Origin: Cellvibrionales bacterium
GTDB taxonomy: Bacteria > Pseudomonadota > Gammaproteobacteria > Pseudomonadales > JAHEIH01
Direction: 5' to 3'
Assembly (NCBI GenBank): GCA_024639455.1
Contig: JAHEIH010000026.1
Location: 31,279-95,278 of the forward strand
Length of the DNA: 64,000 nucleotides
This document shows positions 47,009-64,000 of this stretch, piece after piece. The notes beneath the pieces were generated by a model that was not told where the DNA came from, ran no database searches, and was given only the letters and a program-made list of their open reading frames with translations. Numbering within the stretch: position 1 is the stretch's first letter; each line of letters opens with the position of its first letter. Position numbers and translations under genes: made by a program.

Positions 47009-47036
47009 CAAAAACGCCCCAATGAAGGGGCGTTTA
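47009..47036 (-). terminator. Terminator between the convergent BCCT and TonB receptor genes
   Basis: AAAAA CGCCCC aatgaa GGGGCG TTT. Confidence 0.7.
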
Positions 47037-47056: not shown

Positions 47057-49708
47057 TTAGAAGTTGTAAGTCACGCGAACACCGGCCGTGCGAGGACGAG
47101 AGTATGCAACACGCTCTCTATCGTTCACGTAGTTACGAGACAGCTCTGCACGATCATCGGTCAGGTTGTCAACGTAAGCTTCGGCGGTCCACTCATTGGT
47201 GCTTACACCAGCGGTAATACCTAACATGGTCCAGCTAGCAATACGGTCACGGTTAATCGTGATGATATCGCTGTAAGATTCCGCTGAGTGCGCCATGTGT
47301 GGCATCACGTGGGCAATCATATCGCCACCAACATTCCACTCGTAGCGAGCAGACAAGTTAGCTTGGAAATCCGGCGCGAACGCCAAAGAATCGCCTTTAC
47401 GCACATCACCTGTAGGCGTAATAACATTGGTGATTTCAGTATCCAATGATGAGAATGCACCGTTGATGGTCAAACCAGGTACGCTGTCAGGCTGATAGAT
47501 GAAATCGGCTTCCAAACCCATAACCTCGGCATCAGCCGCGTTGTCCGAGAAGAACAAGTTGGTAATACTGGGGTCAAAGATAGTGGTTTGTAAGCGCGAA
47601 ATTTCTACGAAGAACACGCTACCGTTGAAACGCACTTGACCGTCAGCCAAATCAGTTTTCCAACCAAATTCGTAGTTCATCACTTCATCGGTATCGAGCT
47701 CGAAAGGTACAGTAAAGGTACCATCACCATTTGTCTTACCACCAGGGCGGTTCAACAGGCCAGGACGGTAGCCTTCAGATATCGTACCGTAGAACAACAT
47801 GTCCGCATTTGGACGGTAGTTCAACGTTGCCTTGAAGATAGTACCTTCGGCAATCGCTTTATCCGGCGCGCGCAGAGCATTGTAAATATATTGATTATCA
47901 CCGTCGTAGGTATCTATGTTGTAGGTAATCTTCTCACCGCAAGTACCGTTGTTGGTGAAGTTGCCATCGCCGTCGTAAAGATCAGAAATGTTGGTACCGT
48001 ATGAGTCGTTATCGCTACCATTACCGCCGTTACAGAATGACGAGTTAGCCGTACCGCGGAAGTCAACTTCCACGTTGTAGTATCGAGCACCCAAGGTGAC
48101 TGCCCACTCTTCATTAAGATCCGCAGTGACCTCGCCGAAGATGCCGTACTGTTTGTCGGTACGCAGTACATCATTCAGGAAGATAACCCCGTTGTTGTTT
48201 CCGTTAGCGTCAAGGTTGAAGGGATCATTCGGGTTAGAGCTGTAATCAGCACCCGCAAACGTGTAGTTGGGTAAGAATCCCAATGGTTTGGTAGCACCGG
48301 TCGGATCGTAAAACTCGTTCCACCAAGTACGCGCATTAATAGTCCCTGGGTAGGTAAAGGCGTTACGCTCTTTAAGCTCCAAGTCACTCATGAAGGCACC
48401 AGCCGTGAAGTTGGTCTTCTCGTTGAAATTGCCAGAGAAACGCAACTCGTGGGTCTGAACCTCAGTATTGGTTGAGCTATCTACGTACAGATTGGGCGCT
48501 TGACAGGTGCCGGTAGGCAGACCGCCTGGCGCATAACCGGTGTAAGTAACGAAATAGTCACAGATATAGTAAGGCAGGTATTGCCCTACGAAAAGATAAT
48601 CTGAATAGTCGATACGCTGAGTTGTTTGACGATCGGTATAAGCACCGGTGTAAACCACCTCAAGGTCATTCAACATGCCCTTCAAGGTCCAGCTCAAATT
48701 ATCGAAATCATCTTGTATTGTATTGTCAGTAAAGGTTTGAATCTCTAGATCGCCCAAATTGGGGTCAGCAAAGAAAACACCATCTGATTCAACACTTTGG
48801 GTAGCACCCGTCACCAATAAATTCCATTGGGGATTCAGGTCCATCGACAAGCCTAAGCGCGCGCCAGTGTAGGTCACGTCGTTAAGATTCTCGCCAACCA
48901 ATGCACTGTTGTCCGCATCGATAAATGTGACGTTGCTTAAATCAGCACCTGCCTGGAAACCCGCGCGCGCTGGATCAACAGCGACACCGTTAGAACGAAC
49001 GGTACCTGCCGCACGGAAGCGAGCACTTTCAGAGGCATTTCGTGTGGCTTGAACGTTATCGATATAACCGCCTTTATGGTCACGGTAGGCCACGGTACGC
49101 AAAGCGACGGTATCGCTCAGCGGCGCGTTATACATAAATTCAAAGTTGTTGCTGGGATCACCTGATGAGGTGGTCGCCAAACCAGCTTTGATCTTACCGT
49201 ATGTACCAGTGTGATCGGGCTTGTTGGTAATCAAACGCACAGTACCTGCCTGTGAGCTCGCACCGAATAGCGTACCCTGAGGACCAGACAATACTTCCAC
49301 ACGGCTTAAGTCAGCCGCGTATACGTCAAGGTTACGACCGGGCTGACCGAGAGGCTGCTCGTCTAAGTAAAGTGCAACGTTAGGTGCCAAACCCGCCACA
49401 CCAGCAGTGGTCAAGTTTGGTGTGGTAGATGCAATACCACGGATGTAAATGGTGTTTTGACCAGGACCAGCACCACCAGCGGTAACGCCGGGTAGCTGGA
49501 TTAGGTAATCTTCAAAGTTTGAGATACCCATTTGGTCGAGTTTTTGTTCTGTCACTGCTGATACAGTCACAGGAATATCTTGGGTTGATGCTGTACGTTT
49601 GGTTGCTGTAACGACAACCTCTTCAATCGCTGCCATTGATTGCCCGGCTGCCATAGCAGCAGATACTGCTACAACTGCACTAGCGAGATGTTTCTTTTGA
49701 ATATTCAT
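47057..49708 (-). CDS. TonB-dependent receptor
   Basis: IEEVVVTATKR, VEVLSGPQGTLFGASS, EGYRPG, NYEFGWKT, RPRTAGVRVTYNF. Confidence 0.92.
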   Translation of the reverse strand: MNIQKKHLASAVVAVSAAMAAGQSMAAIEEVVVTATKRTASTQDIPVTVSAVTEQKLDQMGISNFEDYLIQLPGVTAGGAGPGQNTIYIRGIASTTPNLTTAGVAGLAPNVALYLDEQPLGQPGRNLDVYAADLSRVEVLSGPQGTLFGASSQAGTVRLITNKPDHTGTYGKIKAGLATTSSGDPSNNFEFMYNAPLSDTVALRTVAYRDHKGGYIDNVQATRNASESARFRAAGTVRSNGVAVDPARAGFQAGADLSNVTFIDADNSALVGENLNDVTYTGARLGLSMDLNPQWNLLVTGATQSVESDGVFFADPNLGDLEIQTFTDNTIQDDFDNLSWTLKGMLNDLEVVYTGAYTDRQTTQRIDYSDYLFVGQYLPYYICDYFVTYTGYAPGGLPTGTCQAPNLYVDSSTNTEVQTHELRFSGNFNEKTNFTAGAFMSDLELKERNAFTYPGTINARTWWNEFYDPTGATKPLGFLPNYTFAGADYSSNPNDPFNLDANGNNNGVIFLNDVLRTDKQYGIFGEVTADLNEEWAVTLGARYYNVEVDFRGTANSSFCNGGNGSDNDSYGTNISDLYDGDGNFTNNGTCGEKITYNIDTYDGDNQYIYNALRAPDKAIAEGTIFKATLNYRPNADMLFYGTISEGYRPGLLNRPGGKTNGDGTFTVPFELDTDEVMNYEFGWKTDLADGQVRFNGSVFFVEISRLQTTIFDPSITNLFFSDNAADAEVMGLEADFIYQPDSVPGLTINGAFSSLDTEITNVITPTGDVRKGDSLAFAPDFQANLSARYEWNVGGDMIAHVMPHMAHSAESYSDIITINRDRIASWTMLGITAGVSTNEWTAEAYVDNLTDDRAELSRNYVNDRERVAYSRPRTAGVRVTYNF

Positions 49709-49898: not shown

Positions 49899-51446
49899 TT
49901 AGAGCCTCTCATTAAATCCAGCGTCGGCTGGAATTTCACTTTCACGCTTTGATATAAAGTCGCGTAATTTTTGATCAATCTCCGGATCAAGCGACGGTTG
50001 CTGATACTCTGTTAGCAAGAATTTGGCCGCCGCCAATGATCGCGTTTCGAGGTCTTTTTCGCCGTCGAACTCCCACTGGGCGAAAAGTTGACCGTCGAAG
50101 TGCTCGGGCATGAAAAAGGCTTGTTTGAAATTTTCCATTGTGTGGGGATGCTCGAAATAGCGTCCCGATGGGCCGACGTCGCGCACCGCGACCAACGCCT
50201 CATCAAAATTATCCCAATTGGGACCAGAGGCCATTTTATAGGCCATAGCACACTGCTCCGCATCGGCCATAAATTTGGCCACCGAACACAGCAGGCCCGA
50301 TTCTGCCCAACCGGCGGCCTGCCAAATAAAATTAGCGCCGGCGTGCATCACCGACATGAGCGTCGAAGCCCCCTCGTAACCCGCTTGTGCGTCCAATGTT
50401 TTTGCTGCACTTAACGCCCCAGAGGAACGGAAGGGAACTGAATAATGGCGCGCCATTTGCGCCAGCATGTAATTCATCAGCGATGTTTCAGGGGTGCCGA
50501 CGAATGGCATACCTGTTTTCATCGATACAGTGGACAAGTAGGCACCGTAAATCGCCGGCGCACCCTTACGCACCAATTGGGTATACGCTAAACCCGAGAG
50601 GGTTTCAGCATTGATCTGTGCCACCGAAGCTGGCACCGACGCTGGTGTATTGGCGCCGCCCAAGGTAAACGGCGTACATAACACAGGTTGTCGGCGCGAC
50701 ACATAGGCACGCAGCGCCGAGGTCATGGTGGTGTCCCACACCAACGGCGACGTGCCTGAGATATTAGCCACCGTGACCGCGTGGTTTTCCAGAAAATCCT
50801 CGCCGAACAAGATATCGCACATCGCCAGAACATCTTCAGCGTTTTTACCAGAACTGGTCATCCCCATAAACATCTTGTCTGAGTGGACCATGGACGAATA
50901 GGTAATGTGTAAATGGCGATGGGCTACAGGGATGTCGCTGGGATCGACGATGTGATGTCCGGTAGAGTGCATGCTCGGTAACATGTGCGCCAACTTGTGG
51001 AACATAGCCAAATCATCAAGCGTTGCTATTCGGCGCTGATTGTTAAGATCGCGCACATAGCTGGCACCCGACATCGGCACAAATACGGCCTTGTTGTCGC
51101 CAACGGCTAGATTATACGCGGGGTTTCGCGCGGTAAAGGCGATTTCCGATGGGAGGCTAGCGAGCAGTTCACGCAATAAATGGCGATCAATATACACGCG
51201 CTGATCGACCACCTTGGCGCCGGCACGCCGCCAATCATCACGTGCCACCGGGTCGCGGAAGGTCACACCGACATTTTCCAAAATGGCCATAGATGCCTCG
51301 TCGATACGGGCAATCTGGTCAACGTTCATGACGGCTACCGGGGGTAGCACGTTGTTCAATGTGGGTAGCATGGGCGCGAGCTTTGATGATCGACTAGCGA
51401 TTCGCTCTTGTCGTGCGCCTCGTCTACGCAATTGTCCTTTGGCCAT
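49899..51446 (-). CDS. Trimethylamine methyltransferase (MttB) superfamily, non-pyrrolysine, divergent paralog
   Basis: SDKMFMG, SPLVWD, GTPETS, FRSSGALSAAKTLDAQAGYE, GANFIWQAAGW, VGPSGRYF; no in-frame TAG. Confidence 0.88.
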   Translation of the reverse strand: MAKGQLRRRGARQERIASRSSKLAPMLPTLNNVLPPVAVMNVDQIARIDEASMAILENVGVTFRDPVARDDWRRAGAKVVDQRVYIDRHLLRELLASLPSEIAFTARNPAYNLAVGDNKAVFVPMSGASYVRDLNNQRRIATLDDLAMFHKLAHMLPSMHSTGHHIVDPSDIPVAHRHLHITYSSMVHSDKMFMGMTSSGKNAEDVLAMCDILFGEDFLENHAVTVANISGTSPLVWDTTMTSALRAYVSRRQPVLCTPFTLGGANTPASVPASVAQINAETLSGLAYTQLVRKGAPAIYGAYLSTVSMKTGMPFVGTPETSLMNYMLAQMARHYSVPFRSSGALSAAKTLDAQAGYEGASTLMSVMHAGANFIWQAAGWAESGLLCSVAKFMADAEQCAMAYKMASGPNWDNFDEALVAVRDVGPSGRYFEHPHTMENFKQAFFMPEHFDGQLFAQWEFDGEKDLETRSLAAAKFLLTEYQQPSLDPEIDQKLRDFISKRESEIPADAGFNERL

Positions 51447-51471
51447 CGGAGAGTTTTACCTTGTTATTTTT

Positions 51472-51528
51472 TCAAAAAAAACCGATGAGTTTTTGAGGTT
51501 AGTGCTGTCTCAAAAAGTCACCGGTTGT
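51472..51528 (-). terminator. Long hairpin with U-tract between fhs and the second mttB-family gene
   Basis: Minus strand AACCGGTGACTTTTTGAG...CTCAAAAACTCATCGGTT TTTTT. Confidence 0.6.
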
Positions 51529-51558
51529 TTCATCCTCTATGCCGAGGTTTTCGTTTGC

Positions 51559-53250
51559 TTAGAACAGGCCTTCGATATGGCCGTCCTGGTTAACGAAAAT
51601 ACGTTCAGCGGTGGGCACACGAGGCAGACCAGGCATAGTCATGACGTCACCACAGATCACTACCACGAAACCTGCACCGGCTGACAAACGAACATCACGG
51701 ATAGGCACCACGTGGTCAACCGGGGCACCGTAGAGATTGGGATCCGTACTAAACGACAACGGGGTCTTCGCGATACACACAGGCAGATGCCCGAACTCTT
51801 CTTGCAGTGTGGCAATTTGATCGCGGACTTTTTTGTCAGCGATGATGTCGTTAGCACCATACAGCTCAGTCGCGATGGTTTTTACCTTGTCCCACAGGCT
51901 CACGTCGTCGCTGTACAAGGGGCGGAAATTATCTTCGCCTTTCTCGATCACGGCAATCACTTCGCGCGCTAGATCTTCAGCACCTTCACCACCCATAGCC
52001 CAGTGATCAGACATGATAGCTTTCGCGCCAATCTGCTCACACAATTCTTTCAACATGGCGATTTCAGCATCGGTATCGGCGCTGAAACGGTTGATGGCAA
52101 CCACCACCGGCACACCGAATTTACGGGTGTTTTTCACGTGGCGAGCAATGTTAGCAAAACCTTTACGAACGGCTTCAACGTTCTCGGTTTTGAGCTCTTC
52201 GAGGGCAGCACCACCGTGCATTTTCAGCGCACGAATAGTACCCACAATGACCGCTGCATTTGGCTTCAAGCCAGACTTGCGCATTTTGATGTTGAAAAAC
52301 TTCTCTGCACCCAGGTCGGCACCAAAGCCTGCTTCAGTTACTACGTAGTCAGCCAGTTTCAAGGCGGTAGAGGTCGCCAACACTGAGTTACAGCCGTGCG
52401 CGATGTTCGCGAAAGGACCGCCGTGAACGAATGCTGGCGTGCCTTCCAAGGTCTGTACCAAGTTGGGCTGGATAGCGTCTTTCAACAGCGCAGTCATCGC
52501 GCCTTCAGCATTCAATTCGCGCGCGTAGATGGCTTTCTGATCGCGGGTGTAACCGATCACAATGTTGCCCAAACGCTGCTGCAAGTCTTCCAGGCTGGTT
52601 GCCAAACAGAAAATCGCCATAACCTCAGAAGCCACGGTGATATCGAAGCCATCAGTGCGTGGGTAGCCGTTACCAATACCCCCCAAGCTGTTAGTGATTT
52701 GACGCAGGGCGCGGTCGTTCATATCCACCACACGACGCCAGCTCACACGACGCACATCGATACCCAGATCGTTGCCCCAGTAAATGTGGTTATCGATCAT
52801 GGCAGACAACAAGTTGTGCGCTGCACCGATGGCATGGAAGTCGCCGGTAAAGTGCAGGTTAATGTCTTCCATTGGAATGACTTGAGAGTAACCACCCCCA
52901 GCAGCACCACCTTTGATACCAAAGCAAGGACCGAGCGAAGGCTCGCGCAAGCAAATGGCAGTTTTCTTACCCAAACGCGACAGTGCATCGCCCAAGCCCA
53001 CAGTGGTGGTGGTTTTACCTTCACCCGCTTTGGTGGGGTTGATACCAGCAACCAAAATCAACTTGCCATCTTGGCGGTCTTTCAGGCCATTGATGTAGTC
53101 GAGGCTAATTTTCGCCTTATGGTGTCCGTAGGGCTGCAGATCGTCATAGCCCAAGTCAAGTTTAGCGGCGACTTCGGCAATGGGGCGAATCTGGGCTTCG
53201 CGTGCAATTTCGATATCCTGCTTAGGATTCTTGTGTTGTGAGGCTGGCAT
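51559..53250 (-). CDS. fhs: Formate--tetrahydrofolate ligase
   Basis: [67 protein letters not shown]. Confidence 0.97.
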
Positions 53251-53274
53251 CTTAGTGACTCCTTAAAACCATTA

Positions 53275-55365
53275 TTATTTTGCTGAACGACGGCGTCTGC
53301 CGCGGACAGCATTAGTGTTAGCCGAACTTGAGCTGCGACGGTCAGCTAGACCGGGAATCGCCGCTTCAAGTTTGGGGAAGGGATCGGTGCTGTGGGGGAA
53401 TCCCATAGCGCCTACAAAATGGGCTTGGAACGAGGCTTCTGTCGCGGTTTCGATCTTTTCAATACGGCGGATCACCGGCTCGACTTCGTTGCGAGCGTGG
53501 CGATTGATCAACGCAATGCGGGCGCCTTCTCCAGCGGCATTACCGACGCCTCCGACATTGGCGAGGTCACAATCGGGGATCATTCCAAGTAGCATCGCGT
53601 ATTTGACATCGATACGGCTGCCAAAAGCACCCGCCAGTTTGATGCGCTCAACGTTTTCACTACCAAACTTATCCATCAACAAGCGTATGCCAGCATATAA
53701 AGCCGCCTTGGCCAATTGGATGGCACGCACGTCATTTTGAGTAATCTTTAAGGTGCGCGTTCCTTGGTATAACACGTAGCTGTACGTGCGACCGTCTTGA
53801 ATCACGCGCGGTGAAGGTCTGTCATCCTGCGGCTTAATCACACCATCGCGGTTGATAATGCCAGCGAGGAACATCTCACCAATAATTTCGATAATACCGG
53901 AACCACAAATACCGCTGATCTGAAGGCTTGACGATGACATTTCAAAGGTAGGGTCATTCGACCACGGGTCACAACCGATAACTTTGAAGGCCGGGTCCAG
54001 CGTCATGCGATCGATGCGCACGCGCTCAATGGCGCCCACTGCGGCGCGCTGGCCGCAGCTAATTTGTGCGCCTTCGAATGCAGGCCCGGTGGGGCTAGAC
54101 GCCGCCAGCATACGATTGCGATTGCCCAACACGATTTCGGCATTGGTACCCACGTCGACAATCAAGGTCAACTCATCTGACTGGTCTGGGCGCTCTGACA
54201 ACACCACGCCCGCAGCGTCAGCACCAATGTGACCAGCCAAGCAAGGCAGTAAGAAAATACGCGCTGCATCGTGCAGCGGAATATCGAGTTCCGCAGCGCT
54301 GACTTCCATCGCTTGATCAACCGCCAAGTTAAACGGTGCACCACCCAATGGCACAGGGTCAAGGCCTAGCAGAATGTGGTGCATGATGGGGTTACAAACG
54401 ATCACCACATCCATCACGTCGCTAGCTTTCAACCACGCCTGCGTCGCCGCTTCTTTGATCAAATCGGCAATGCGCTGACGGACAACTTTGCTCATTTCCT
54501 CGGCGCCGCCCTCATTCATCATCGCGTAGGACACGCGACTCATGAGGTCTTCACCAAATTTAATTTGTGGATTCATCGCCGAGGCTGAGGCAAGCACCTT
54601 ACCATCGCTCAGGTCTGCCAAGTGAGCGACGATACTGGTAGAACCCAAATCGATAGCACACCCATAAGCCTTAGCTTCGTGGCCGGGCCAAATGGCAACG
54701 ATTTGCGGAGGCTTGCGCACTGAGTTGAAGATCGCCACGCTGACTTTCATCGACGTGTCCGGCGTTTTCTTCATATGCTCGGTAACCATAGCTTGCAGAT
54801 GTCTCACCATGGACAGTTCATACCACAACCCAGTGAGATCATTATTAGACTGCAAATCTGTCACCAAGCGGCTCATATCTGCGTGGGGGACATCCATAAT
54901 GGGCGCTGGTATATAGGCGGTAAAAACCGACACTGCGGGTGCCAAGTCAATATCGCGATCTTCAATCGCCTTAGCAATATCCTGTTCATGCGACTGGCTA
55001 CTGGCGGGAATTTCGATCACAACATCGTTCATGATCTTAGCGGTACAACCCAAGCGAGCACCGAGTTGTCGCTCGTCCCCTACACGCCCCGCTTCCACTT
55101 CTTTAAATTCTGACAAACTGTCATGGGTCGAATTCACCCCATATTTGGGGAAGTCGCCCACTACGTGGTAGACCTTGCACGTGCCGCAAATACCTTGGCC
55201 ACCGCAGACTGACTCTACGTCAACACCCAAGCGACGAGCTGCCCGTAAAACGGGCATACCCTCAGGTACCTCGCCTCGGATACCCGAGGGGGTAAAAATC
55301 ACTTTGACGTTTTTCAGGTTCTTCGCACGGCGAGACCTGCGTGAGACCAAGGTTGATTCGCTCAT
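53275..55365 (-). CDS. Reductive activator of corrinoid proteins (RACE/RamA-like; N-terminal 2Fe-2S + ASKHA ATPase)
   Basis: CGGQGICGTC..RLGC, DLGSTS, NPQIKFGEDLMSR, DVGTNAE, GPAFEG, GICGSG, LAGAFG, GNAA. Confidence 0.9.
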   Translation of the reverse strand: MSESTLVSRRSRRAKNLKNVKVIFTPSGIRGEVPEGMPVLRAARRLGVDVESVCGGQGICGTCKVYHVVGDFPKYGVNSTHDSLSEFKEVEAGRVGDERQLGARLGCTAKIMNDVVIEIPASSQSHEQDIAKAIEDRDIDLAPAVSVFTAYIPAPIMDVPHADMSRLVTDLQSNNDLTGLWYELSMVRHLQAMVTEHMKKTPDTSMKVSVAIFNSVRKPPQIVAIWPGHEAKAYGCAIDLGSTSIVAHLADLSDGKVLASASAMNPQIKFGEDLMSRVSYAMMNEGGAEEMSKVVRQRIADLIKEAATQAWLKASDVMDVVIVCNPIMHHILLGLDPVPLGGAPFNLAVDQAMEVSAAELDIPLHDAARIFLLPCLAGHIGADAAGVVLSERPDQSDELTLIVDVGTNAEIVLGNRNRMLAASSPTGPAFEGAQISCGQRAAVGAIERVRIDRMTLDPAFKVIGCDPWSNDPTFEMSSSSLQISGICGSGIIEIIGEMFLAGIINRDGVIKPQDDRPSPRVIQDGRTYSYVLYQGTRTLKITQNDVRAIQLAKAALYAGIRLLMDKFGSENVERIKLAGAFGSRIDVKYAMLLGMIPDCDLANVGGVGNAAGEGARIALINRHARNEVEPVIRRIEKIETATEASFQAHFVGAMGFPHSTDPFPKLEAAIPGLADRRSSSSANTNAVRGRRRRSAK

Positions 55366-55372
55366 AGTGAAC

Positions 55373-57886
55373 TTATGCTCTCAGTTTCGCGTTTTGGGCA
55401 TCGTAAGGTGATTCTTCAATCACGGTCGCCTGGTAGAGTTCGCCCAGGATTTCGATCTGCAATGCGGTGCCAATGGCAGCATATTCTGGCGCCACCAAAC
55501 CCAGTGCCAGTGACTTTTCAACACGCCACCCGTAACCACCCGAGGTGGCCCGGCCAACCAGTTCGCCGTCTTTGTAGATCGCTTCTGAACCGCGCGCATC
55601 CGCGTCGGTTACACCATGGACTTCTAGGGTAACGAAAGCATTTTTGAAGCCGCGCTCCTGCCACGCTTTCAGGCCTTCTTTTCCGATGAAGTCGCACTCC
55701 TTGTCGAGGCGAACGAATCGGTCAAGACCCGACTCGAGCGCTGAGTACTCGATCGACATTTCGCGAGGAATCAAACGGTAAGATTTTTCTAGGCGCATAC
55801 AATCCATGGCGCGGATACCGAAGGGTTTGATATCAAACTCTGCACCGGCCTTCATCAGCTCATCAAAGATGTAGTTTTGCATCTCCATGGGGTGGTGCAA
55901 TTCCCAGCCCAATTCGCCGACAAAGTTTACGCGTAACGCGTGTGCTTGGGCGTAGCCAACGTTGATGAACTTGCCGCTCAACCATGGGAAATTGGGGTTG
56001 CTCAAATCAGTGTCGGTAATCTTCTGCAGCACGTCGCGCGCCTTGGGACCCGCCAGCACCAGCACGCCCATCTGCGTGGTGATCAACTGTAGGTCTACGC
56101 TGCCATCGGTGGGCTTAAGCTTGTGCAGGTAATCAAAATCATGGGTTTCGAAAGCGCCAGCAGATACTAAGTAATATTTATTGGCAGCCATCTTGTAGAC
56201 AGTGAATTCAGCACGCACACCGCCAGAGTTAGTCAGCATATGACACAGACCTACGCGACCCACTTTCTTAGGAATAGTGTTCGCCAAAATAGATTCCAAC
56301 CACGCTTCAGCACCGGGGCCGGTAACCATGGTTTTGGCAAAGGCCGACATATCTAACAGACCAACTTTCTCGGCTACGTGCTTACACTCGTTGCCGACAA
56401 ACTCGAAGTAGTTAGAGCGACGGAAAGAGTTTTTCTCGACGATACGGCCATCTTCTAGCGGCGCGGAGTGGTTCTTTTTCCACAATACATCCGCCATGTT
56501 GAGATCTTCTTCGCTCAACGAGTAATCTTTGGGGGCAAACCAGTTGGGGCGCTCCCAACCATATACCGAACCAAAGACGGCACCGAGCTCTTTCATGCGG
56601 TCGTAGCATGGGGTAGTTCTCAGAGGACGCGCAGATGAACGCTCTTCATCGGGATAGTGCGTGGTAAATACGTTGCGGTAGGCTTCTTCGTTCTTGTCGC
56701 GCAGGTAGCCACGTGATGCATACGGGCCAAAGCGACGTGGATCCACGCCCATCATGTCAACGGTAGGCTCACCATCTACAATCCACTCGGCCAACTGCCA
56801 ACCGGCACCACCGGCAGCGGTGATGCCAAAGCTGTGGCCTTCATTCAACCAGAAGTTTTTCAGACCTGGCGCGGGACCAACGATGGGGTTACCATCCGGG
56901 GTGTAAGCGATCGCACCGTTGTATACGTACTTCACACCCACATCACCAAAGGCAGGCACGCGCTCCATACATTTTTCGATGTGCGGCATCAAGCGGTCGA
57001 GTTCTTCGTTGAACAGCTCCCATTCGCAATGTTCACCGGGGCCATCGACATAACATACCGGCGCACCTTGCTCGTAGGGACCTAACAGAAGACCACCCGC
57101 CTCTTCGCGCAGGTAGTAACCAGAATCTGATTCACGCAGCACGCCCATCTCGGGCTCACCGCGCGCTTGACGCGCTTTAATTTCGGGGTGTGGCTCAGTC
57201 ACGATAAACTGGTGCTCTACGGGAATCACAGGCACATCAAGGCCAACCATTTCACCCGTCTTGCGTGCAAAGCTACCGGTACATGACACCACGTGTTCAC
57301 ACACGATATCGCCCTTGTCGGTGCATACCTTCCACATACCATCAGCTTGCTGCTCAATGCTCAACACCGTGGTGAAGCGGTGGATTTTTGCACCCATATT
57401 GCGGGCACCCGTGGCCAATGCCTGGGTCAGATCCGCCGGTTGAATGTAGCCATCTTCAGGGTGCTGGATCGCACCAAGCAAGCCTTCGGTTTCGCACAGC
57501 GGCCAAATTTCTTTCACTTGCTCTGGTGTCAAGAAATTAACATCAACGCCCACAGTTTTGGCCACGCCGCTGTAATACTTGTACTCGTCCATGCGGTATT
57601 CGCAGTTGGCTAAGCGGATGTTACTCACCTTGCTCAAGCCAACGTTCTTACCGGTTTCTTTCTCGAGTTCTTGGTAGAAGTCCACAGAATACTGGTGCAA
57701 CTTGCCTACCGAGTAGCTCATGTTAAACAGGGGCAGCAATCCGGCGGCGTGCCAAGTAGAGCCAGAAGTCAGCTCTTTACGCTCGATCAGAACGCAATCT
57801 GACCAACCTTTTTTAGCTAAGTGATAAAGGGTACCTACACCCACTACACCACCACCAATCACGACTACGCGAGCTGTTGATTCCAC
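55373..57886 (-). CDS. Dimethylglycine dehydrogenase-like flavoprotein (DAO + GcvT domains)
   Basis: IGGGVVG, LTSGSTWHAAG, YTPDGNP, GWERPNWF, GELGWELH, RLEKSY; GTG start at 57886 after AGGAG. Confidence 0.88.
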   Translation of the reverse strand: MESTARVVVIGGGVVGVGTLYHLAKKGWSDCVLIERKELTSGSTWHAAGLLPLFNMSYSVGKLHQYSVDFYQELEKETGKNVGLSKVSNIRLANCEYRMDEYKYYSGVAKTVGVDVNFLTPEQVKEIWPLCETEGLLGAIQHPEDGYIQPADLTQALATGARNMGAKIHRFTTVLSIEQQADGMWKVCTDKGDIVCEHVVSCTGSFARKTGEMVGLDVPVIPVEHQFIVTEPHPEIKARQARGEPEMGVLRESDSGYYLREEAGGLLLGPYEQGAPVCYVDGPGEHCEWELFNEELDRLMPHIEKCMERVPAFGDVGVKYVYNGAIAYTPDGNPIVGPAPGLKNFWLNEGHSFGITAAGGAGWQLAEWIVDGEPTVDMMGVDPRRFGPYASRGYLRDKNEEAYRNVFTTHYPDEERSSARPLRTTPCYDRMKELGAVFGSVYGWERPNWFAPKDYSLSEEDLNMADVLWKKNHSAPLEDGRIVEKNSFRRSNYFEFVGNECKHVAEKVGLLDMSAFAKTMVTGPGAEAWLESILANTIPKKVGRVGLCHMLTNSGGVRAEFTVYKMAANKYYLVSAGAFETHDFDYLHKLKPTDGSVDLQLITTQMGVLVLAGPKARDVLQKITDTDLSNPNFPWLSGKFINVGYAQAHALRVNFVGELGWELHHPMEMQNYIFDELMKAGAEFDIKPFGIRAMDCMRLEKSYRLIPREMSIEYSALESGLDRFVRLDKECDFIGKEGLKAWQERGFKNAFVTLEVHGVTDADARGSEAIYKDGELVGRATSGGYGWRVEKSLALGLVAPEYAAIGTALQIEILGELYQATVIEESPYDAQNAKLRA

Positions 57887-57990
57887 AATGACACTCCTAA
57901 TATGAATTCGAATTATGGGCGCACAAATACGCCTAATTATCATTTTGGCAAGAGTCTACCGATGCAGCTCAAACGCGTACTATGTTAATT

Positions 57991-58068
57991 GCGACAGGCA
58001 AGTACTCATTTACGACAGCGGCTATTTCCCTATTTTTTTTATGGCGCGTTGAGACAACTGTATGTCGC
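57991..58068. promoter_or_regulatory. Two oppositely oriented GbdR-like boxes (TGTCGY-N15-TGTCGC) in the divergent promoter
   Basis: GCGACA (57991) / ACGACA (58012) facing the dehydrogenase; TGGCGC (58042) / TGTCGC (58063) facing mtgB; 21-bp period. Confidence 0.6.
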
Positions 58069-58151
58069 GAAGGAAAAGGGTGCGCGAGGAAAGTCCATGC
58101 AATATAACAGCGATAAAAAGTCTAACCCTATCTATCGTTGAGAACTGAATT

Positions 58152-59720
58152 ATGACTGATGCAGCAACCAATGTACGTCGCGGTGGTCGCCGCGCCGGTG
58201 GACGAGCCGATCGCAGAGCAGCAGCCGGTGAAGCAGTAATCGCTCCCGCTTATTTGACGCGTAAAATCCCTACTTTCAGCATTCTAAACGAGGAAGGCCT
58301 AGCCCAGATCGAACACAATGCCGATACCATCTTGGAAGAAATTGGTATTGAGTTCCGCGACGACCCTGAGTCACTGGACATACTAAAAAACGCCGGCTGT
58401 GACGTAGTTGGTGAACGGGTTAAATTTCCCCGTGGCATGTGCCGCCAGATCATTCAAGCATCGGCACCGCGCGAATACACCCAACATGCACGCAACCCAG
58501 CGCGCAGTGTAAAAATCGGTGGCGACAACACCGTTTTCGTACCCGCTTACGGCTCACCTTTCGTTTACGACATCGAGCAAGGCCGTCGTTACGCCACCAT
58601 TAAAGACTTCGAAAACTTTGTAAAACTGGCCTATATGTCTCCCGGCCTTCACCACTCGGGCGGCACCGTGTGCGAACCCGTTGACTTGCCGGTTAACAAG
58701 CGTCACTTTGACATGCTTTACAGCCACATGAAGTATTCAGACAAAGCGTTTATGGGCTCGGTTACAGCACCCTCTCGCGCACAAGACTCGGTCGACATGT
58801 GTAAGATTTTGTTTGGTGATGATTACTTGGATCCTGCCACTGGCAAGCCCAAGACCTTCATGACTAGCCTGATCAACGCTAACTCGCCTATGACTTTCGA
58901 CGACACCATGCTCGGCGCCGCCAAGGTATTCGCGCGCACCAACCAAGCCTGTATCATCACCCCCTTCATTTTGGCCGGCGCCATGTCACCGGTGACCGTA
59001 GCCGGCACAGCGGCGCAATCATTGGCCGAAGCCATGGCTGGAATGACTTTGGTGCAGCTGGTCAACCCCGGTGCTCCTGTCATTATGGGCAGCTTCGCCA
59101 GTTCGATTTCTATGCAGTCTGGCGCCCCCACTTTCGGTACCCCCGAGCCCGCCATGGTACTTTACGTAATGGCTGAACTAGCACGCCGCCTGGGCGTACC
59201 TTTCCGCTCTGGCGGTAGCCTGTGTGGCTCTAAACTACCCGACGCACAAGCCGCTAGCGAAGCCGCCAATACCTTAATTCCCACCACGTTAGCTGGTGTG
59301 AACTTTGTACTTCACACCGCTGGTTGGTTAGAGGGTGGTCTGGCAATGGGTTACGAGAAATTCATCATGGATGCTGACCAAGCAGCGATGATGGCTGTGC
59401 AATTGGCCGGTGTCGATATATCTGAAAACGGCCAAGCAATGGACGCCATTCGCGAAGTGGGTCCAGGTAGCCACTTCTTAGGTTGCGCCCATACTCAAGC
59501 CAACTTTAAAACAGCCTTCTACCGCTCAGCCATTACTGACAACAATAGCTATGAACAATGGGCATCAGAAGGCAGCAAAGATATGGCGACTCGATCCTAC
59601 GAGCGCTGGAATAGCATGTTAAATTCTTACGAAGCACCCGCGCTTGACGAAGCCACCGATGAGGCTCTGCTGGACTTTATCAGTCGTCGCAAATCGGAAA
59701 TGCCCGACGCAACCCATTAA
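58152..59720 (+). CDS. mtgB: Non-pyrrolysine MttB-family methyltransferase, probable glycine betaine:corrinoid methyltransferase (MtgB-like)
   Basis: PAYGSPFV, HHSGGTVCEPVD, SDKAFMGSVT, INANSP, SGAPTFGTPE, PFRSGGSLCGSKLPDAQA, HTAGWLEGGL, VGPGSHFLG. Confidence 0.85.
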   Translation: MTDAATNVRRGGRRAGGRADRRAAAGEAVIAPAYLTRKIPTFSILNEEGLAQIEHNADTILEEIGIEFRDDPESLDILKNAGCDVVGERVKFPRGMCRQIIQASAPREYTQHARNPARSVKIGGDNTVFVPAYGSPFVYDIEQGRRYATIKDFENFVKLAYMSPGLHHSGGTVCEPVDLPVNKRHFDMLYSHMKYSDKAFMGSVTAPSRAQDSVDMCKILFGDDYLDPATGKPKTFMTSLINANSPMTFDDTMLGAAKVFARTNQACIITPFILAGAMSPVTVAGTAAQSLAEAMAGMTLVQLVNPGAPVIMGSFASSISMQSGAPTFGTPEPAMVLYVMAELARRLGVPFRSGGSLCGSKLPDAQAASEAANTLIPTTLAGVNFVLHTAGWLEGGLAMGYEKFIMDADQAAMMAVQLAGVDISENGQAMDAIREVGPGSHFLGCAHTQANFKTAFYRSAITDNNSYEQWASEGSKDMATRSYERWNSMLNSYEAPALDEATDEALLDFISRRKSEMPDATH

Positions 59721-59735
59721 TAAATCTCTTTCATG

Positions 59736-59760
59736 AAACGGCCTAACGGCCGTTTTTTTT
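59736..59760 (+). terminator. Rho-independent terminator after mtgB
   Basis: AAACGGCC taac GGCCGTTT TTTTT. Confidence 0.85.
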
Positions 59761-59850
59761 CGCATTTTCAAAGACCTGTTACAAAACATAAGATTGACCA
59801 AATAATATTATTGGTTTAAAACGCAACTATATTTTGAAGCGTCGATTCAT

Positions 59851-60825
59851 ATGCTTAACATAAAAACTGAAACCATTAAGATAGGTTTTTTATTGCTCGA
59901 TGAGTTCACTATGATGGCATTTACCGCCGCCATTGAACCATTGCGTATGGCTAACCGCCTACTGGAACGTGATCAATACACGTGGGACCTTATCACCCAG
60001 AACGGTGAATTATGCCGAGCCAGCAACGGCATCGCTGTTCAAGCCGATCACGGCTTGGTGAATATGCCTGCGCTAGACTACTTGTTTGTTTGCGGTGGCA
60101 TTAATGTGCAAGACAAGTACAACGCCAACCTCGCTAGCACACTGACTAAAATCGCCAAATCCAAAACTATTTTGGGCGGCGTTTGCACAGGCAGTTACAT
60201 CCTGGCAAAAACGGGTTTGTTAAACGGTTATCGCGCCGCCATCCACTGGGAAAACCTCGCCAGTACCCGTGAAGAATTTCCCTCCATCAATGTGGTAGAA
60301 GATATCTTTGTCTTCGACAAAAACCGCTACACCAGCGCCGGCGGTGTGGCAGCGATGGACATGATGCTGCACGTGATCAGCATGACCATGGGAAACACCC
60401 TGGCTACCAATATTTCAGAACAGTTTTTGTTGTCGCGCATCCGTGACCGCGAGGACCAGCAGCGCACCCCGCTACACATAAAACTCGGCCCTAACCAACC
60501 TAAATTGACCGAAGCTGTGTCGCTAATGGAAGCCAACATTGAAGAACCCATTGGGCTAGAAGAATTATCGTCGCTAGTGGGTATATCTAGACGCCAACTG
60601 GAACGCCTGTTTCAAAAGTACTTGCACTGCGTACCAACTCGATACTATATGGAATTGCGCCTGAAGCGGGCACGTTTGCTACTGCTGCAGACCGACAAAC
60701 CGGTGATCGACATCGCGCTAGCTTGTGGCTTCATTTCTGCCACCCATTTCAGCAAATGCTATCGCGATTTTTATAGTATTCCACCCAGCGGAGCTAGACG
60801 CCAAAAATTAAAGGCCTTGCACTAA
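59851..60825 (+). CDS. gbdR: GlxA/GbdR-family AraC regulator (DJ-1/PfpI + AraC)
   Basis: AIEPLRMANR, GGVCTGSY, IHWEN, QPKLTEAVSLMEANIEEP, SRRQLERLF, ACGF..ATHFSKCYR; located in a betaine cluster. Confidence 0.8.
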   Translation: MLNIKTETIKIGFLLLDEFTMMAFTAAIEPLRMANRLLERDQYTWDLITQNGELCRASNGIAVQADHGLVNMPALDYLFVCGGINVQDKYNANLASTLTKIAKSKTILGGVCTGSYILAKTGLLNGYRAAIHWENLASTREEFPSINVVEDIFVFDKNRYTSAGGVAAMDMMLHVISMTMGNTLATNISEQFLLSRIRDREDQQRTPLHIKLGPNQPKLTEAVSLMEANIEEPIGLEELSSLVGISRRQLERLFQKYLHCVPTRYYMELRLKRARLLLLQTDKPVIDIALACGFISATHFSKCYRDFYSIPPSGARRQKLKALH

Positions 60826-60847
60826 GCTAGTAGCGCAAGGCCTTTAT
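60809..60847. terminator. Bidirectional hairpin between the convergent regulator and methyltransferase genes
   Basis: TAAAGGCCTTGC...GCAAGGCCTTTA inverted repeat overlapping the regulator stop. Confidence 0.65.
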
Positions 60848-60870
60848 GTAGAGCTCAATTCAATCGCGAA

Positions 60871-61776
60871 TTAGCTACTGCGACGACGTCCGCTAGTTCG
60901 ACGGCCACGTGCACCAGCCTCACCTGCAGCAGGCGCCTCACGGAAACGCTTGATCCAATTAACGCAATCGGGGTCGCGCCCCATCATCACGTCCGCACCT
61001 AACGTGGCGCTGATAATTTCCTTGTGCATGGGGTTGGCAATCGCCGACGTCATACCCGCGTGAATCGCCATACTTAAGAAAGCACCATTCACACCGTCGC
61101 GGTTGGGTAGACCAAAGCTGATATTTGAGGCACCACAAGTGGTGTTTACTTTCAATTCGGTACGTAAACGGTGGATCAATTTCATCGCTTGCAAGCCAGC
61201 GGTATTAATAGCACCCACAGGCATCACCAGCGGATCAACCACGACATCACACGCGGGAATACCGTAGTCAGCGGCGCGGTTAACGATCTTTTTCGCTACT
61301 TCGAAACGCACATTGGGGTCTTCAGAAATACCTGTTTCGTCGTTCGAAATCGCTACCACAGCAGCGCCGTATTTCTTAACCAGCGGCAGTACTCGCTCCA
61401 TTTGCTCATCTTCGCCGGTCACTGAGTTCACCAGCGCTTTGCCTTTGTAAACCGCCAAGCCAGCGGCTAGCGCCTCGACAATCGATGAGTCGATAGCCAG
61501 CGGGGTATCGGTCAGCGACTGCACTAACTGAATGGTTTCAGCCAAAATCTTGGGCTCGTCGGCCAGAGGAATACCAGCGTTGACGTCTAACATGTGCGCA
61601 CCCGCTTCAACCTGTGCTAAAGCGTCAGCTTTCACTCGGCTGTAATCGCCATTCTTCATCTCTTCTGCGAGAAGTTTACGGCCGGTGGGATTGATGCGCT
61701 CACCAATAATTACGAAGGGGCGCTCGAAGCCCATCACGACTTCTTTGGTAGCTGAACTTAAAATTGTGTCAGTCAT
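60871..61776 (-). CDS. Methyltetrahydrofolate:corrinoid methyltransferase (pterin-binding; MtgD/MetH-domain-like)
   Basis: IIGERINPTGRK, LDVNAG, IDSS, VNSVTGE, VDPLVMP, GASNISFGLPNR. Confidence 0.9.
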   Translation of the reverse strand: MTDTILSSATKEVVMGFERPFVIIGERINPTGRKLLAEEMKNGDYSRVKADALAQVEAGAHMLDVNAGIPLADEPKILAETIQLVQSLTDTPLAIDSSIVEALAAGLAVYKGKALVNSVTGEDEQMERVLPLVKKYGAAVVAISNDETGISEDPNVRFEVAKKIVNRAADYGIPACDVVVDPLVMPVGAINTAGLQAMKLIHRLRTELKVNTTCGASNISFGLPNRDGVNGAFLSMAIHAGMTSAIANPMHKEIISATLGADVMMGRDPDCVNWIKRFREAPAAGEAGARGRRTSGRRRSS

Positions 61777-61806
61777 TGTTATAGTGTCTCCATCAGAAGA
61801 AAGTCA

Positions 61807-62427
61807 TTAACGATGCGCCGCGTCGACAAAACGCACGATCGATGTCGCCATGTCGCCGATACCGGTAAAGCGGTACTCGTACGACAAACCTAACTCTTCA
61901 GCCGCTGCCTGTGCCGCCTGCTGTAGCTCACAATCTTCCGTCTGAGCTAAATAGACGAGCTTTTTGTAGTGACCAAAAAACATCGGTTTTAGGGCGGGCT
62001 TTTTATCCAGCCCGAGCCCTCTAATCACCAGGCGATCGAAATGCCGCGCCAGGAAATCCGTTAAATAAAAGGTGCCAAGTTCGTCTTCATGCATCGCATT
62101 GAAGGACTCATCACCGGCAAAAAATTGGTAGCAGTGGGCGCCGGGGATGCGATCGACATCTTCCTCGGCTAGCAACCGGTCCAACATGCCACCTGTACCA
62201 CAGTCGCCATAGGCGACAAAAACCTCAGCGCCACGCGCTTTTGCTCGATCAATACTTTCGCTAACCGCGTCAGTAATGAGATCGGGGCGGTTGTGCAACT
62301 CCGCGGTGATAGCGTCGACACTGACGTGCGACCAATGGTTGAGCTTTTTCAACGCGTTGATTTCTTTCAACAGCGCCGAACAAGCCACAATGACTATCTC
62401 AGCGGGTGGCGCGGCATCCGCCCCCAT
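61807..62427 (-). CDS. DUF1638 family protein
   Basis: IVACSAL, LHNRPDLI, YGDCGTGG, GAHCY, TFYLTDFL, HYKKLVYLAQ. Confidence 0.8.
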   Translation of the reverse strand: MGADAAPPAEIVIVACSALLKEINALKKLNHWSHVSVDAITAELHNRPDLITDAVSESIDRAKARGAEVFVAYGDCGTGGMLDRLLAEEDVDRIPGAHCYQFFAGDESFNAMHEDELGTFYLTDFLARHFDRLVIRGLGLDKKPALKPMFFGHYKKLVYLAQTEDCELQQAAQAAAEELGLSYEYRFTGIGDMATSIVRFVDAAHR

Positions 62428-62435
62428 GACTGGTC

Positions 62436-63143
62436 CTAAGCCGCGCGACGCGTGGCGATCAGGTCTTTCGCCATATCGACAGCAACACCAGCGTCGCGGC
62501 AGTAAGCATCGGCGCCAACGGCCATACCAAACTCTTCGTTCAGAGGCGCACCACCCACCATGACGATGTAGTCATCGCGAACGCCTTTCTCAACCATAGT
62601 GTCGATAACGACCTTCATGTACGGCATAGTAGTGGTCAGCAACGCTGACATGCCGAGGATGTCGGGCTTGTGCTCTTCAAGTGCATCAAGGTATTGCTCG
62701 ACAGGTACGTTGATGCCGATATCGATAACTTCGAAGCCAGCACCTTCCATCATCATTGACACCAAGTTTTTACCGATGTCGTGGATGTCGCCTTTAACCG
62801 TGCCGATAACCATTTTTCCGATCGACTCAGCGCCAGTTTCGGTCAAGATGGGACGCAAAATTGCCATACCCGCTTTCATGGCGTTAGCCGCACACAGTAC
62901 TTCGGGCACGAACAGAATGCCGTCGCGGAAGTCGACGCCCACGATAGCCATGCCAGCAACCAGTGCGTCAGACAACACCTTGTCAGCTCCCCAACCGCGA
63001 TCTAACAGAATCTGAGTGCCTTCAGCAATTTCATCTTCAAGACCGTTATAGAGATCGTCGAACATCTGCTCAACCAGCTCTTCATCGTTGAGTTCGTTGA
63101 GGTCGAGGAAATCATCATCGTAATTATCGTCTTGGCCTGTCAT
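62436..63143 (-). CDS. Cobalamin (corrinoid)-binding methyl-carrier protein (MtgC-like)
   Basis: FVPEVL, GTVKGDIHDIGKNLV (DxHxxG), MSALLTTT, VGGAP; start MTGQDD after GGAGG. Confidence 0.92.
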   Translation of the reverse strand: MTGQDDNYDDDFLDLNELNDEELVEQMFDDLYNGLEDEIAEGTQILLDRGWGADKVLSDALVAGMAIVGVDFRDGILFVPEVLCAANAMKAGMAILRPILTETGAESIGKMVIGTVKGDIHDIGKNLVSMMMEGAGFEVIDIGINVPVEQYLDALEEHKPDILGMSALLTTTMPYMKVVIDTMVEKGVRDDYIVMVGGAPLNEEFGMAVGADAYCRDAGVAVDMAKDLIATRRAA

Positions 63144-63233
63144 GGAAAATCCTCCGGTAAAATCAAGCACACATGCCACGCATGTTACAGCGTGCAGAAT
63201 ATTGGCGAACGGGATTTGCCATCCCTCGCTTTT

Positions 63234-63260
63234 GCGACACTGCACTATCGAAATGCGACA
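63234..63260 (-). promoter_or_regulatory. GbdR-like box upstream of the corrinoid-protein operon
   Basis: GCGACA at 63234 and 63255 = TGTCGC-N15-TGTCGC on the minus strand. Confidence 0.65.
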
Positions 63261-63486
63261 CACGCTTTTTATCACCCGTAACTCCCTGTCTACAAAGGGG
63301 TTGTGGAATTTCAATTTTTGAGGGCAGGTCGTTTTTTTACATATAGACGCCGCTGAGATGCAAATCGGCGCAAGATGTTAGCGCTAGAATCGCTGGATTA
63401 TAGAAAAATTCGCATTGATGTTGCGATATACCCCGTCATACTTGCGGGTTAGCGTCATCTACGATTTCAACGTTGAGGGTTTAACT

Positions 63487-64000
63487 ATGCAGCGATACTC
63501 CGGATTCGAGCTGTTTAAACAGAGTCTCAGTCACCATGAGAACTGGCAGAGCGTCTGGCGCAATCCCAAGCCAAAAGACAAGTACGACGTCATCATCGTC
63601 GGCGGTGGCGGCCACGGCCTTGCTACGGCCTACTATTTGGCGAAGGTTCACGGCATCACTAATGTCGCGGTACTGGAAAAGGGCTACCTCGGCGGCGGTA
63701 ACACTGGCCGTAACACGACGATTGTGCGCTCTAACTACCTGTGGGACGAAGCCGCTCACCTTTACGAACACGCCATGAAATTGTGGGAAGGCCTGTCGCA
63801 AGACCTCAACTACAACGTGATGTTTTCGCAGCGCGGTGTGCTCAACCTAGGCCACACTCTGCAAGACATGCGCGACATTCAACGCCGTGTTAACGCCAAC
63901 CGCTTGAACGGTATCGATGGTGAAATACTCGACACCAAGCAAGTGCAAGAGATCGTACCAATGATGGATTGTTCGGCGAACACCCGTTACCCCGTCATGG
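63487..64000 (+). CDS. soxB: Sarcosine oxidase subunit beta (3' truncated by window)
   Basis: MQRYSGF...[51 protein letters not shown]; missing from the ORF track because there is no stop in the window. Confidence 0.93.

Follow-up and report, generated by a model that had tools for sequence, protein, structure and literature searches.

A probable glycine betaine catabolic gene cluster of the proteobacterial MtgBCD type on the chromosome of an uncultured marine gammaproteobacterium

The right-hand part of a 64,000-nucleotide stretch of the Cellvibrionales bacterium assembly GCA_024639455.1 (contig JAHEIH010000026.1, forward-strand positions 31,279 to 95,278; the whole stretch is called the window below, and coordinates are counted from its first nucleotide) carries a gene cluster that, to judge from homology and synteny, is quite probably a chromosomal cluster of the aerobe-compatible MtgBCD type of Proteobacteria, serving the catabolism of glycine betaine (betaine below) in an uncultured marine gammaproteobacterium. 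Four transcription units were read from the open reading frames (ORFs) together with Pfam and NCBIfam profile searches. Unit 1 (57943 to 49899, minus strand) comprises the genes for a dimethylglycine dehydrogenase (DMGDH)-type flavoenzyme, a 2Fe-2S/RACo-type activase, Fhs and an MttB-family protein (paralogue A, here called MttA), separated by spacers of 7, 24 and 112 bp; 3′ of it lie a TonB-dependent receptor gene and then a terminator-like hairpin (47012–47035). Unit 2 (58152–60825, plus strand) contains the other MttB-family gene, here called gene B, and the gene of a GbdR-like regulator. Unit 3 (63143 to 60871, minus strand) encodes a corrinoid protein (MtgC), a DUF1638 protein and a pterin-binding methyltransferase (MtgD), and unit 4 is plus-strand soxB, which runs off the window end. 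Between the convergent gbdR-like and mtgD genes a hairpin with a 16-pair stem (seven G-C pairs) is followed by a T run (60809–60846), and this is likely a two-way terminator. The GC content of the cluster is 0.51–0.54, and the rest of the window spans 0.46–0.58. A first-pass annotation, made from the sequence alone, had the gene inventory right, because the ORF listing and the profile searches recover every gene it named at or near the coordinates it gave; the BCCT transporter gene is likewise present, at 44972–46936, which is outside the interval 49899–64000 that had been assigned to the system. The Rep helicase of the host is at most 65% identical to those of named genera (Oceanicoccus, Cellvibrio), with Motiliproteus at 64%.

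Gene B (58152–59720, plus strand) encodes a 522 aa protein that matches the MttB-family profile PF06253 from end to end (767.3 bits, profile positions 1–500 of 500). Against chains in the PDB it scores 729.8 bits with the Sinorhizobium meliloti protein 4yyc, 437 and 436 bits with MtgB of Desulfitobacterium hafniense (2qne and 9yce, respectively) and 136.9 bits with the pyrrolysine-containing MttB 7xcl. In HMMER alignments the pyrrolysine (X) of the latter Methanosarcina chain falls on L357 of gene B (in GSLCGSK) and on L345 of MttA (in GALSAAK), which confirms the earlier alignment by eye that had placed a leucine there and seen no amber codon in either gene. Both ORFs are uninterrupted and cover the full PF06253 profile, so they belong to the non-pyrrolysine branch of the MttB superfamily. 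The trimethylamine methyltransferase model TIGR02369 gives the two proteins 273.1 and 268.5 bits against a cut-off of 525, and by this test neither of them is a trimethylamine methyltransferase.

In D. hafniense MtgB, betaine is bound by Y97, R312, H348 and F356, as mutagenesis and a betaine-bound structure reported in 2026 show (PMC13080624); the 9yce chain is numbered with an offset of 2 relative to that paper, and with this offset all four published residues match their letters. The first three have Y133, R352 and H388 as their equivalents in gene B, and at the position of F356 lies G396, with W392 four residues before it. The three equivalents, the Gly and the upstream Trp are invariant in 120 of 120 gene B homologues (the best 120 of 8000 scored matches, 73–100% identical), and the invariant Trp may take the place of F356. 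Named relatives within this set are Aliamphritea, Amphritea, Sedimenticola, Nitrincola, Pseudomonas paeninsulae and metagenome-assembled genomes (MAGs) of Comamonadaceae and Rhodocyclaceae; the nearest relatives are gamma- and betaproteobacterial (73–79% identity, including Pseudomonas, Halomonas and Aliamphritea), and the orthologue in S. meliloti shares 65% identity. Three of the four betaine-binding residues and the strong synteny described below make gene B the likely glycine betaine:corrinoid methyltransferase (MtgB) of the cluster.

The corrinoid protein gene was listed as an ORF of 292 codons (62436–63314, minus strand). Because its conserved alignment starts at Met58 and six relatives are 232–242 aa long, the gene is taken to be 62436–63143, encoding 235 aa, and alignment to those relatives led us to reject the 80-residue N-terminal extension as an ORF-calling artefact of an upstream TTG. 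The protein has a PF02607 (B12-binding_2) and a PF02310 (B12-binding) domain, and its DxHxxG motif, already recognized in the first pass, reads D-I-H-D-I-G and is invariant in all seven aligned corrinoid proteins. It is 70–82% identical to the six relatives, all from proteobacterial loci (75% to that of S. meliloti), and in its B12 cap and Rossmann domains, its motif and its identity to members of published clusters it is of the proteobacterial MtgC type. It falls short of the cut-offs of both NCBIfam MtgC models (209.7 vs. 370 bits for NF047996 and 167.8 vs. 310 bits for NF047995), which we take to represent the proteins of anaerobes. The methyl-tetrahydrofolate (THF):corrinoid methyltransferase of the MtgD type (60871–61776, minus strand; PF00809, 103.4 bits; PRK07535, 359.6 vs. 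259 bits) is a MeTr-type pterin-binding protein, 61–87% identical to its counterparts in related loci. The corrinoid reductive activase (53275–55365, minus strand) has the four domains of the RACo/RamA-like proteins (Fer2, RACo_linker, Raco_middle, RACo_C_ter) and aligns with the solved RACo 3zyy over residues 20–665 (283.7 bits); it lies below the more specific AcsV (366.5 vs. 800 bits) and RamA (95.2 vs. 500 bits) models. The DUF1638 protein (61807–62427, minus strand; PF07796, 100.7 bits) belongs to a family proposed to help recharge the corrinoid (PMC12478193).

The DMGDH-type flavoenzyme (55373–57943, minus strand) combines DAO, FAO_M, GCV_T and GCV_T_C domains, the GcvT part binding THF, and its solved relatives score 619 (human), 616 (rat) and 352 bits (Arthrobacter dimethylglycine oxidase). 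Its domains and nearest structures are thus those of a dimethylglycine dehydrogenase. Formate-tetrahydrofolate ligase is encoded by fhs (51559–53250, minus strand; PF01268, 889.4 bits; NF010030, 911.7 vs. 652 bits). The last gene, soxB, for a putative sarcosine oxidase beta subunit, is present as its N-terminal part (63487–64000, plus strand, within ORF 63415–63999), the start being most likely the in-frame ATG at 63487 with GAGGG before it; its TIGR01373 score (303.6 bits) is below the cut-off of 529.45, which is what a fragment would be expected to give (195 residues, covering model positions 1–169 of 407).

These genes would support the following route. Betaine or a precursor would enter the cell, possibly via the BCCT transporter, and gene B (MtgB) would transfer one betaine methyl group to the Co(I) of MtgC, leaving dimethylglycine (DMG), after which the pterin-binding MtgD would shift the methyl group from methyl-Co(III) to THF. 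The 2Fe-2S/ASKHA activase, perhaps with the DUF1638 protein, would reduce Co(II) to Co(I), the oxidised form being expected to arise often in oxic cells. The DMGDH-type enzyme would convert DMG to sarcosine and sarcosine oxidase would convert sarcosine to glycine, both giving one-carbon (C1) units to THF, and Fhs would join a THF-linked C1 oxidation branch (formyl-THF to formate and ATP). This path from betaine to DMG (B12-dependent, with the methyl group passed to THF), sarcosine and glycine is the one the first-pass annotation proposed, and it fits both the gene content and the published MtgBCD model (PMC12478193). The system was also called complete there, which holds for methyl transfer to THF and for corrinoid reactivation and does not hold for metF, which is not among the window genes.

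The route itself is known from aerobes. Knock-outs of mtgC and mtgD abolish growth of the aerobic Ruegeria pomeroyi on betaine (Mausz et al. 2025, PMC12478193), and on this substrate the levels of two PF06253 proteins, one RamA-like protein and one DUF1638 protein rise in this bacterium; according to the same study, mtgC occurs in marine Alpha-, Gamma- and Deltaproteobacteria, frequently next to DMG and sarcosine demethylation genes. Parts of a preprint on Phaeobacter inhibens (bioRxiv 10.64898/2025.12.19.695462) report mtgB1, mtgC and gbcAB mutants, and an mtgB1 gbcAB double mutant that cannot grow on betaine. The opinion that such systems are known in anaerobes and only proposed in roseobacters is therefore out of date, since the function has been shown genetically in aerobes and gammaproteobacterial occurrence has been reported (PMC12478193). 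Novelty of the architecture is not supported either, the route having already been described in aerobic marine bacteria (PMC12478193), and the description of the locus as anaerobe-type chemistry wired to a Pseudomonas-type regulator is contradicted by the identity of MtgC (70–82%) and gene B (73–79%) to proteobacterial proteins. The window cluster is thus a good but ordinary example, because the pathway was shown in aerobic marine bacteria in 2025.

A scan of genome contigs found at least 587 relatives of gene B (601 pattern matches), and 80 loci with 63–79% gene B identity were compared with twelve window proteins by tblastn. They include Pseudomonas borbori, two Halomonas, Azoarcus, Kiloniella and many gammaproteobacterial MAGs. 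MtgC, DUF1638, MtgD and activase genes are all found no more than 10 kb from the MttB orthologue in 28 of the 80 (the core loci below), and in 22 of the 43 that have full flanks. Also found near the orthologue are a GbdR-like gene of at least 45% identity (34/80), DUF1638 (30/80), DMGDH of at least 50% identity (17/80, and in 5 of the 28 core loci), fhs (9/80) and soxB (7/80). The GbdR-like gene is directly downstream on the same strand in 26 of the 80, so the link between gbdR-like and mttB genes is not confined to this genome. A Porticoccaceae MAG (L024) has fhs, DMGDH, MttB, MtgC, DUF1638, metF, MtgD, RACo, two GbdR-like genes and soxB together, and the S. meliloti orthologue (L082) faces genes for a cobalamin-binding protein, DUF1638, metF, a methyl-THF:cobalamin methyltransferase, an ASKHA protein and bmt, a set that matches the mtgBCDE cluster of PMC12478193. 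Synteny thus ties gene B to mtgC, mtgD and betaine catabolic genes. Within the Pseudomonas group the orthologue is carried by Pseudomonas sp. sp1636 (L005), P. borbori (L007) and a Halopseudomonas aestusnigri MAG (L061), and the first two also hold MtgC, DUF1638, MtgD and activase; as these Pseudomonas loci carry MttB and core genes, the B12 route exists inside the genus that provides the GbcAB model. By its sequence relationships the hardware of the window cluster is of proteobacterial type and not borrowed from anaerobes, because its relatives are proteobacterial and the S. meliloti cluster matches the published mtgBCDE genes; the sub-cut-off NCBIfam MtgC scores agree with this.

The window cluster represents a variant in the interval between the DUF1638 gene and mtgD, which is 30 bp long. 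The corresponding gap is at least 1.1 kb in 24 of the 28 core loci (L076 has 10.6 kb, its two genes not being adjacent), and a small gap (342–626 bp) was found among the core loci only in L013, L033 and L040. A methylene-tetrahydrofolate reductase (MTHFR) gene occupies the gap in all four large-gap loci inspected (L002, L023, L024 and L025) and in S. meliloti (L082), and most of these five also carry PF12225 (MTHFR C-terminal) and PF13769 (“Virulence_fact”, ∼100 aa) there; folD adjoins this module in L023 and L025. The PF13769/PF12225/MTHFR module is absent from the window and probably from the three small-gap loci as well.

The AraC-family regulator gene (59851–60825, plus strand) encodes a DJ-1/PfpI sensor domain and an HTH_18 domain. 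GbdR is by far its best-scoring family (the runner-up reaches 156.7 bits), and on sequence grounds it is GbdR-like without qualifying as a GbdR equivalog. Two operators are predicted in the cluster. The first (57990–58017, plus strand; TGCGACA-N14-TACGACA) is 47 bp upstream of dmgdh and 135 bp upstream of gene B, and the second (63233–63260, plus strand; TGCGACA-N14-TGCGACA) precedes the corrected mtgC start by 90 bp and soxB by 227 bp; read on the minus strand, both are GTCG(C/T) direct repeats with a 21-bp period that point to dmgdh and mtgC. The exact pattern TGCGACA-N14-T(G/A)CGACA occurs twice in the 64 kb, both times in a divergent intergenic region of the cluster, and in none of 100 shuffles. 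Its relaxed form RCGAC-N16-RCGAC is present five times in the window (0.59 expected), two of these being the operators and three lying inside coding sequence. In 16 of the 28 core loci the relaxed pattern is found on the opposite strand no more than 400 bp upstream of mtgC, against an expectation of ∼0.4 from a background of 0.036 sites per kb per strand, and 14 of the 16 have a GbdR-like gene. In eight of the 12 core loci without such a site mtgC is intra-operon, and three of these eight (L016, L018 and L024) have a site upstream of mttB instead. According to passages of PMC5806209, CdhR binds GGTCGC half-sites with a 15-bp spacer and its sites are very similar to those of GbdR, SouR and ArgR; the window sites have the pattern of this operator type (GTCGC-like half-sites ∼21 bp apart), with the half-site spacing reported there. 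It seems probable that the GbdR-like regulator would activate the divergent promoters through these repeats. The term “GbdR” is absent from the main texts of PMC12478193 and of the P. inhibens preprint, the texts consulted name no regulator for the route, a literature search for “GbdR” with “corrinoid” found no paper describing a link between them, and the regulator that responds to betaine is described as “elusive” in a passage of a Rhizobiaceae preprint from 2026.

MttA (49899–51446, minus strand; 515 aa; PF06253, 628.8 bits, profile positions 1–500 of 500) is 39% identical to gene B, and D. hafniense MtgB gives it 325 bits as against 437 for gene B. At the positions of Y97, R312, H348 and F356 it has S126, R340, Q376 and G384, so that the Arg alone of the four betaine residues is kept, and there is an extra Trp at 375. 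Among its best 120 matches the closest are two metagenomic clusters (92% and 70% identical), the only others with at least 70% identity, followed by relatives at 61–65%, the named ones mostly Rhodobacterales and Hyphomicrobiales; at the Ser and Gln positions these relatives carry Thr (116/120) and His (118/120), respectively. A tree groups MttA with the two metagenomic clusters on a separate three-member S/Q branch, with a support of 0.999. No MttA orthologue was found in any of the 80 gene B loci, which gave only cross-matches of 37–41% identity. MttA is by these sequence comparisons a rare variant with an altered substrate pocket, and it probably would pass methyl groups from a different, anionic quaternary amine to the same MtgC/MtgD pair. 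In three of four Rhodobacterales/Mesorhizobium plasmids inspected, a 60–61% identical homologue adjoins genes for an FAD oxidoreductase, an aldehyde dehydrogenase and a DHDPS-family protein, and on Cereibacter sphaeroides 2.4.1 plasmid pB (L083, 8920–16854; compare L081 and L084) also an enolase-superfamily gene. This neighbourhood resembles the hydroxyproline betaine/proline betaine genes of Kumar et al. (2014; PMC3950512), whose passages on the neighbourhood say nothing of an MttB gene; we treat the resemblance as a lead and not as a result, because MttA has no such neighbours in the window.

Several observations weigh against the reading of the window as an MtgBCD-type betaine cluster under a GbdR-type switch. 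Neither MttB protein reaches the cut-off of an NCBIfam equivalog model, the sole match being the sub-cut-off trimethylamine model, and F356 of D. hafniense MtgB is a Gly in gene B as in all 120 of its homologues. The regulator scores 430.4 bits on the GbdR model NF052371, below the cut-off of 480. There is no metF/MTHFR gene among the window ORFs scanned, so that the fate of methyl-THF is not encoded in the window and its oxidation would have to rely on a gene elsewhere, and the window contains neither a cobalamin riboswitch (Rfam, gathering thresholds) nor any cob or btu gene. In 52 of the 80 related loci the four core genes are not in the available sequence, which is not evidence of their absence because many contigs are short. 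Finally, the operator pattern was derived after the window sites had been seen, and was relaxed from GCGAC to RCGAC before the loci were counted; same-strand sites upstream of mtgC are enriched too (9/28), and for this reason the argument from orientation is soft.

Four other explanations were considered. A somewhat unlikely one is that MtgC, MtgD, the activase and DUF1638 are mainly a split cobalamin-dependent methionine synthase that would need a homocysteine-binding MtgE encoded elsewhere, a role in betaine use being secondary or absent. Mutants of R. pomeroyi in mtgC and mtgD are indeed methionine auxotrophs, most MtgBCD genomes are without metH (PMC12478193), and the S. meliloti protein to which the window MtgC is 75% identical comes from a cluster that holds bmt/mtgE. 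However, no homocysteine methyltransferase gene was found in the window, and the genes in question sit among those for DMGDH, SoxB, Fhs, two MttB proteins and the GbdR-like regulator, with a common predicted operator. As the published model is one of dual function, this explanation adds to the betaine reading more than it competes with it.

It is considerably less probable that gene B uses another quaternary amine, such as choline or proline betaine, and that DMGDH and sarcosine oxidase serve a separately formed product. The loss of F356, one of the four betaine contacts, would allow for this, as would the variation of substrate specificity across the MttB family (PMC13080624) and the neighbouring BCCT transporter, which scores best against the choline BetT subfamily (692 vs. 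695). On the other hand, the equivalents of Y97, R312 and H348 are invariant in 120 of 120 homologues, gene B beats its paralogue against D. hafniense MtgB (437 vs. 325 bits), its orthologues are repeatedly linked to DMGDH (17/80 loci) and GbdR-like genes (34/80), and one of them lies in the cluster matching the published S. meliloti mtgBCDE genes. Slightly less probable again is that the two MttB paralogues duplicate each other as isoenzymes, glycine betaine being the substrate of both. Both are full-length non-pyrrolysine MttB proteins of one cluster, R. pomeroyi raises two PF06253 proteins on betaine (PMC12478193), and passages of the P. inhibens preprint describe upregulation of three of four mtgB homologues on it (bioRxiv 10.64898/2025.12.19.695462); against this, H348E, Y97A and F356L each cripple D. 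hafniense MtgB (PMC13080624), the paralogues are only 39% identical, and MttA keeps R312 alone, with S, Q and G elsewhere and the extra Trp. Furthermore, MttA-type genes occur in none of the 80 gene B loci.

The Co(I) state is oxygen-sensitive. Recent acquisition of the system from strict anaerobes, with function only under anoxic or micro-oxic conditions, is very improbable and was rejected, even though the first descriptions of corrinoid methyltransferase systems other than MetH came from anaerobes (PMC12478193), since all close relatives found of gene B, MtgC, MtgD and the activase are proteobacterial, the GC content of the cluster lies inside the range of the window, a putative oxygen-using sarcosine oxidase accompanies the cluster, and the route functions in oxic cultures of R. 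pomeroyi (PMC12478193) and, according to parts of the preprint, of P. inhibens.

An MtgBCD-type betaine cluster as proposed for the window can be set beside several known systems. With the MtgBCD(E) clusters of aerobes (R. pomeroyi, P. inhibens and S. meliloti; PMC12478193) it shares the component set and the co-location with DMG, sarcosine and C1 genes, sequences having been compared with the S. meliloti member only (MtgC 75%, gene B 65% identical); it differs in having no metF2 module and no mtgE, in its GbdR-like regulator and predicted operator, and in the second, pocket-divergent MttB inside the DMGDH operon. The MtgB/MtgC/MtgA systems of the anaerobes D. hafniense and Methanolobus vulcani have the same chemistry and fold family (gene B matches at 437 bits, with Leu at the pyrrolysine position and three of four betaine residues), but F356 is a Gly in gene B, the corrinoid protein is under both NCBIfam MtgC cut-offs, and the context in the window is oxidative catabolism (DMGDH, sarcosine oxidase), whereas theirs is acetogenesis or methanogenesis. 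Like the Pseudomonas aeruginosa GbdR regulon (the Rieske betaine monooxygenase GbcAB, DgcAB, SoxBDAG), the window has a regulator with DJ-1/PfpI and AraC helix-turn-helix domains next to betaine catabolic genes; in contrast, gbcAB and dgcAB were not found in the window, the first demethylation would be corrinoid-dependent and the second of DMGDH type, and the regulator is under the equivalog cut-off. In Eubacterium limosum, the substrate-specific MttB-family modules MtpB, MtcB, MtyB and MthB, which act on other quaternary amines, converge on a single corrinoid protein and a single methyl-THF methyltransferase (PMC12478193), an arrangement like that suggested for MttA, and, as described in PMC13080624, the R312 equivalent is kept in them as it is in MttA; MttA differs in belonging to a proteobacterial clade.

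The BCCT-family, BetT-like transporter gene (44972–46936, plus strand; PF02028, 646.5 bits; TIGR00842, 529.7 vs. 407.55 bits) encodes a protein just under the cut-off for the BetT subfamily and below that for betaine BCCT transporters (582 vs. 650), and it probably imports choline or betaine. Between it and the end of mttA is the gene of the TonB-dependent receptor (47057–49708, minus strand; 883 aa; Plug and beta-barrel), whose membership in the betaine system is uncertain; no orthologue of at least 40% identity is present in the 80 related loci. A role of this receptor as a B12 importer was rejected, its likeness to BtuB being confined to the N-terminal region (37.3 bits over residues 7–182; 33.7 bits over 4–217) and its gene having no orthologue in any of the 80 loci. 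Another TonB-dependent receptor, from the siderophore subfamily, adjoins a QhpR-like AraC regulator gene at 39171–42619 and is apparently unrelated to the betaine cluster. Farther to the left, the window contains a nitrogen-control block of glnA, ntrB, ntrC and a “marine subtype” ammonium transporter gene (20803–26453), in which the glnA ORF as listed starts ∼54 codons early and overlaps the ORF of a neighbouring sodium-dependent transporter, and a gene at 3177–4796 (minus strand) for a 539-aa protein that looks like a fusion of a SufS/CsdA cysteine desulfurase (residues 2–400) and CsdE/SufE (400–534). A tRNA gene (35100–35173, plus strand) is the sole Rfam match in the window at the gathering threshold.

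The sequence evidence also permits a broader and more tentative proposal, which we regard as possible rather than probable: a GbdR-family regulator acting via the conserved GTCGC operator would be the betaine/DMG switch of the gammaproteobacterial MtgBCD route, and the same MtgC/MtgD/activase core would also serve the rare S126/Q376 MttA, whose substrate would be some marine quaternary amine different from betaine. The locus does not overturn current understanding and is a further gammaproteobacterial example of the MtgBCD route, from an uncultured lineage. It offers three testable leads, namely the regulator with its operator, the specificity of MttA, and a variant of the cluster that has no methylene-THF reductase of its own. 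Through the MtgBCD route, the turnover of betaine, a major osmolyte in the sea, is coupled to the supply of vitamin B12.

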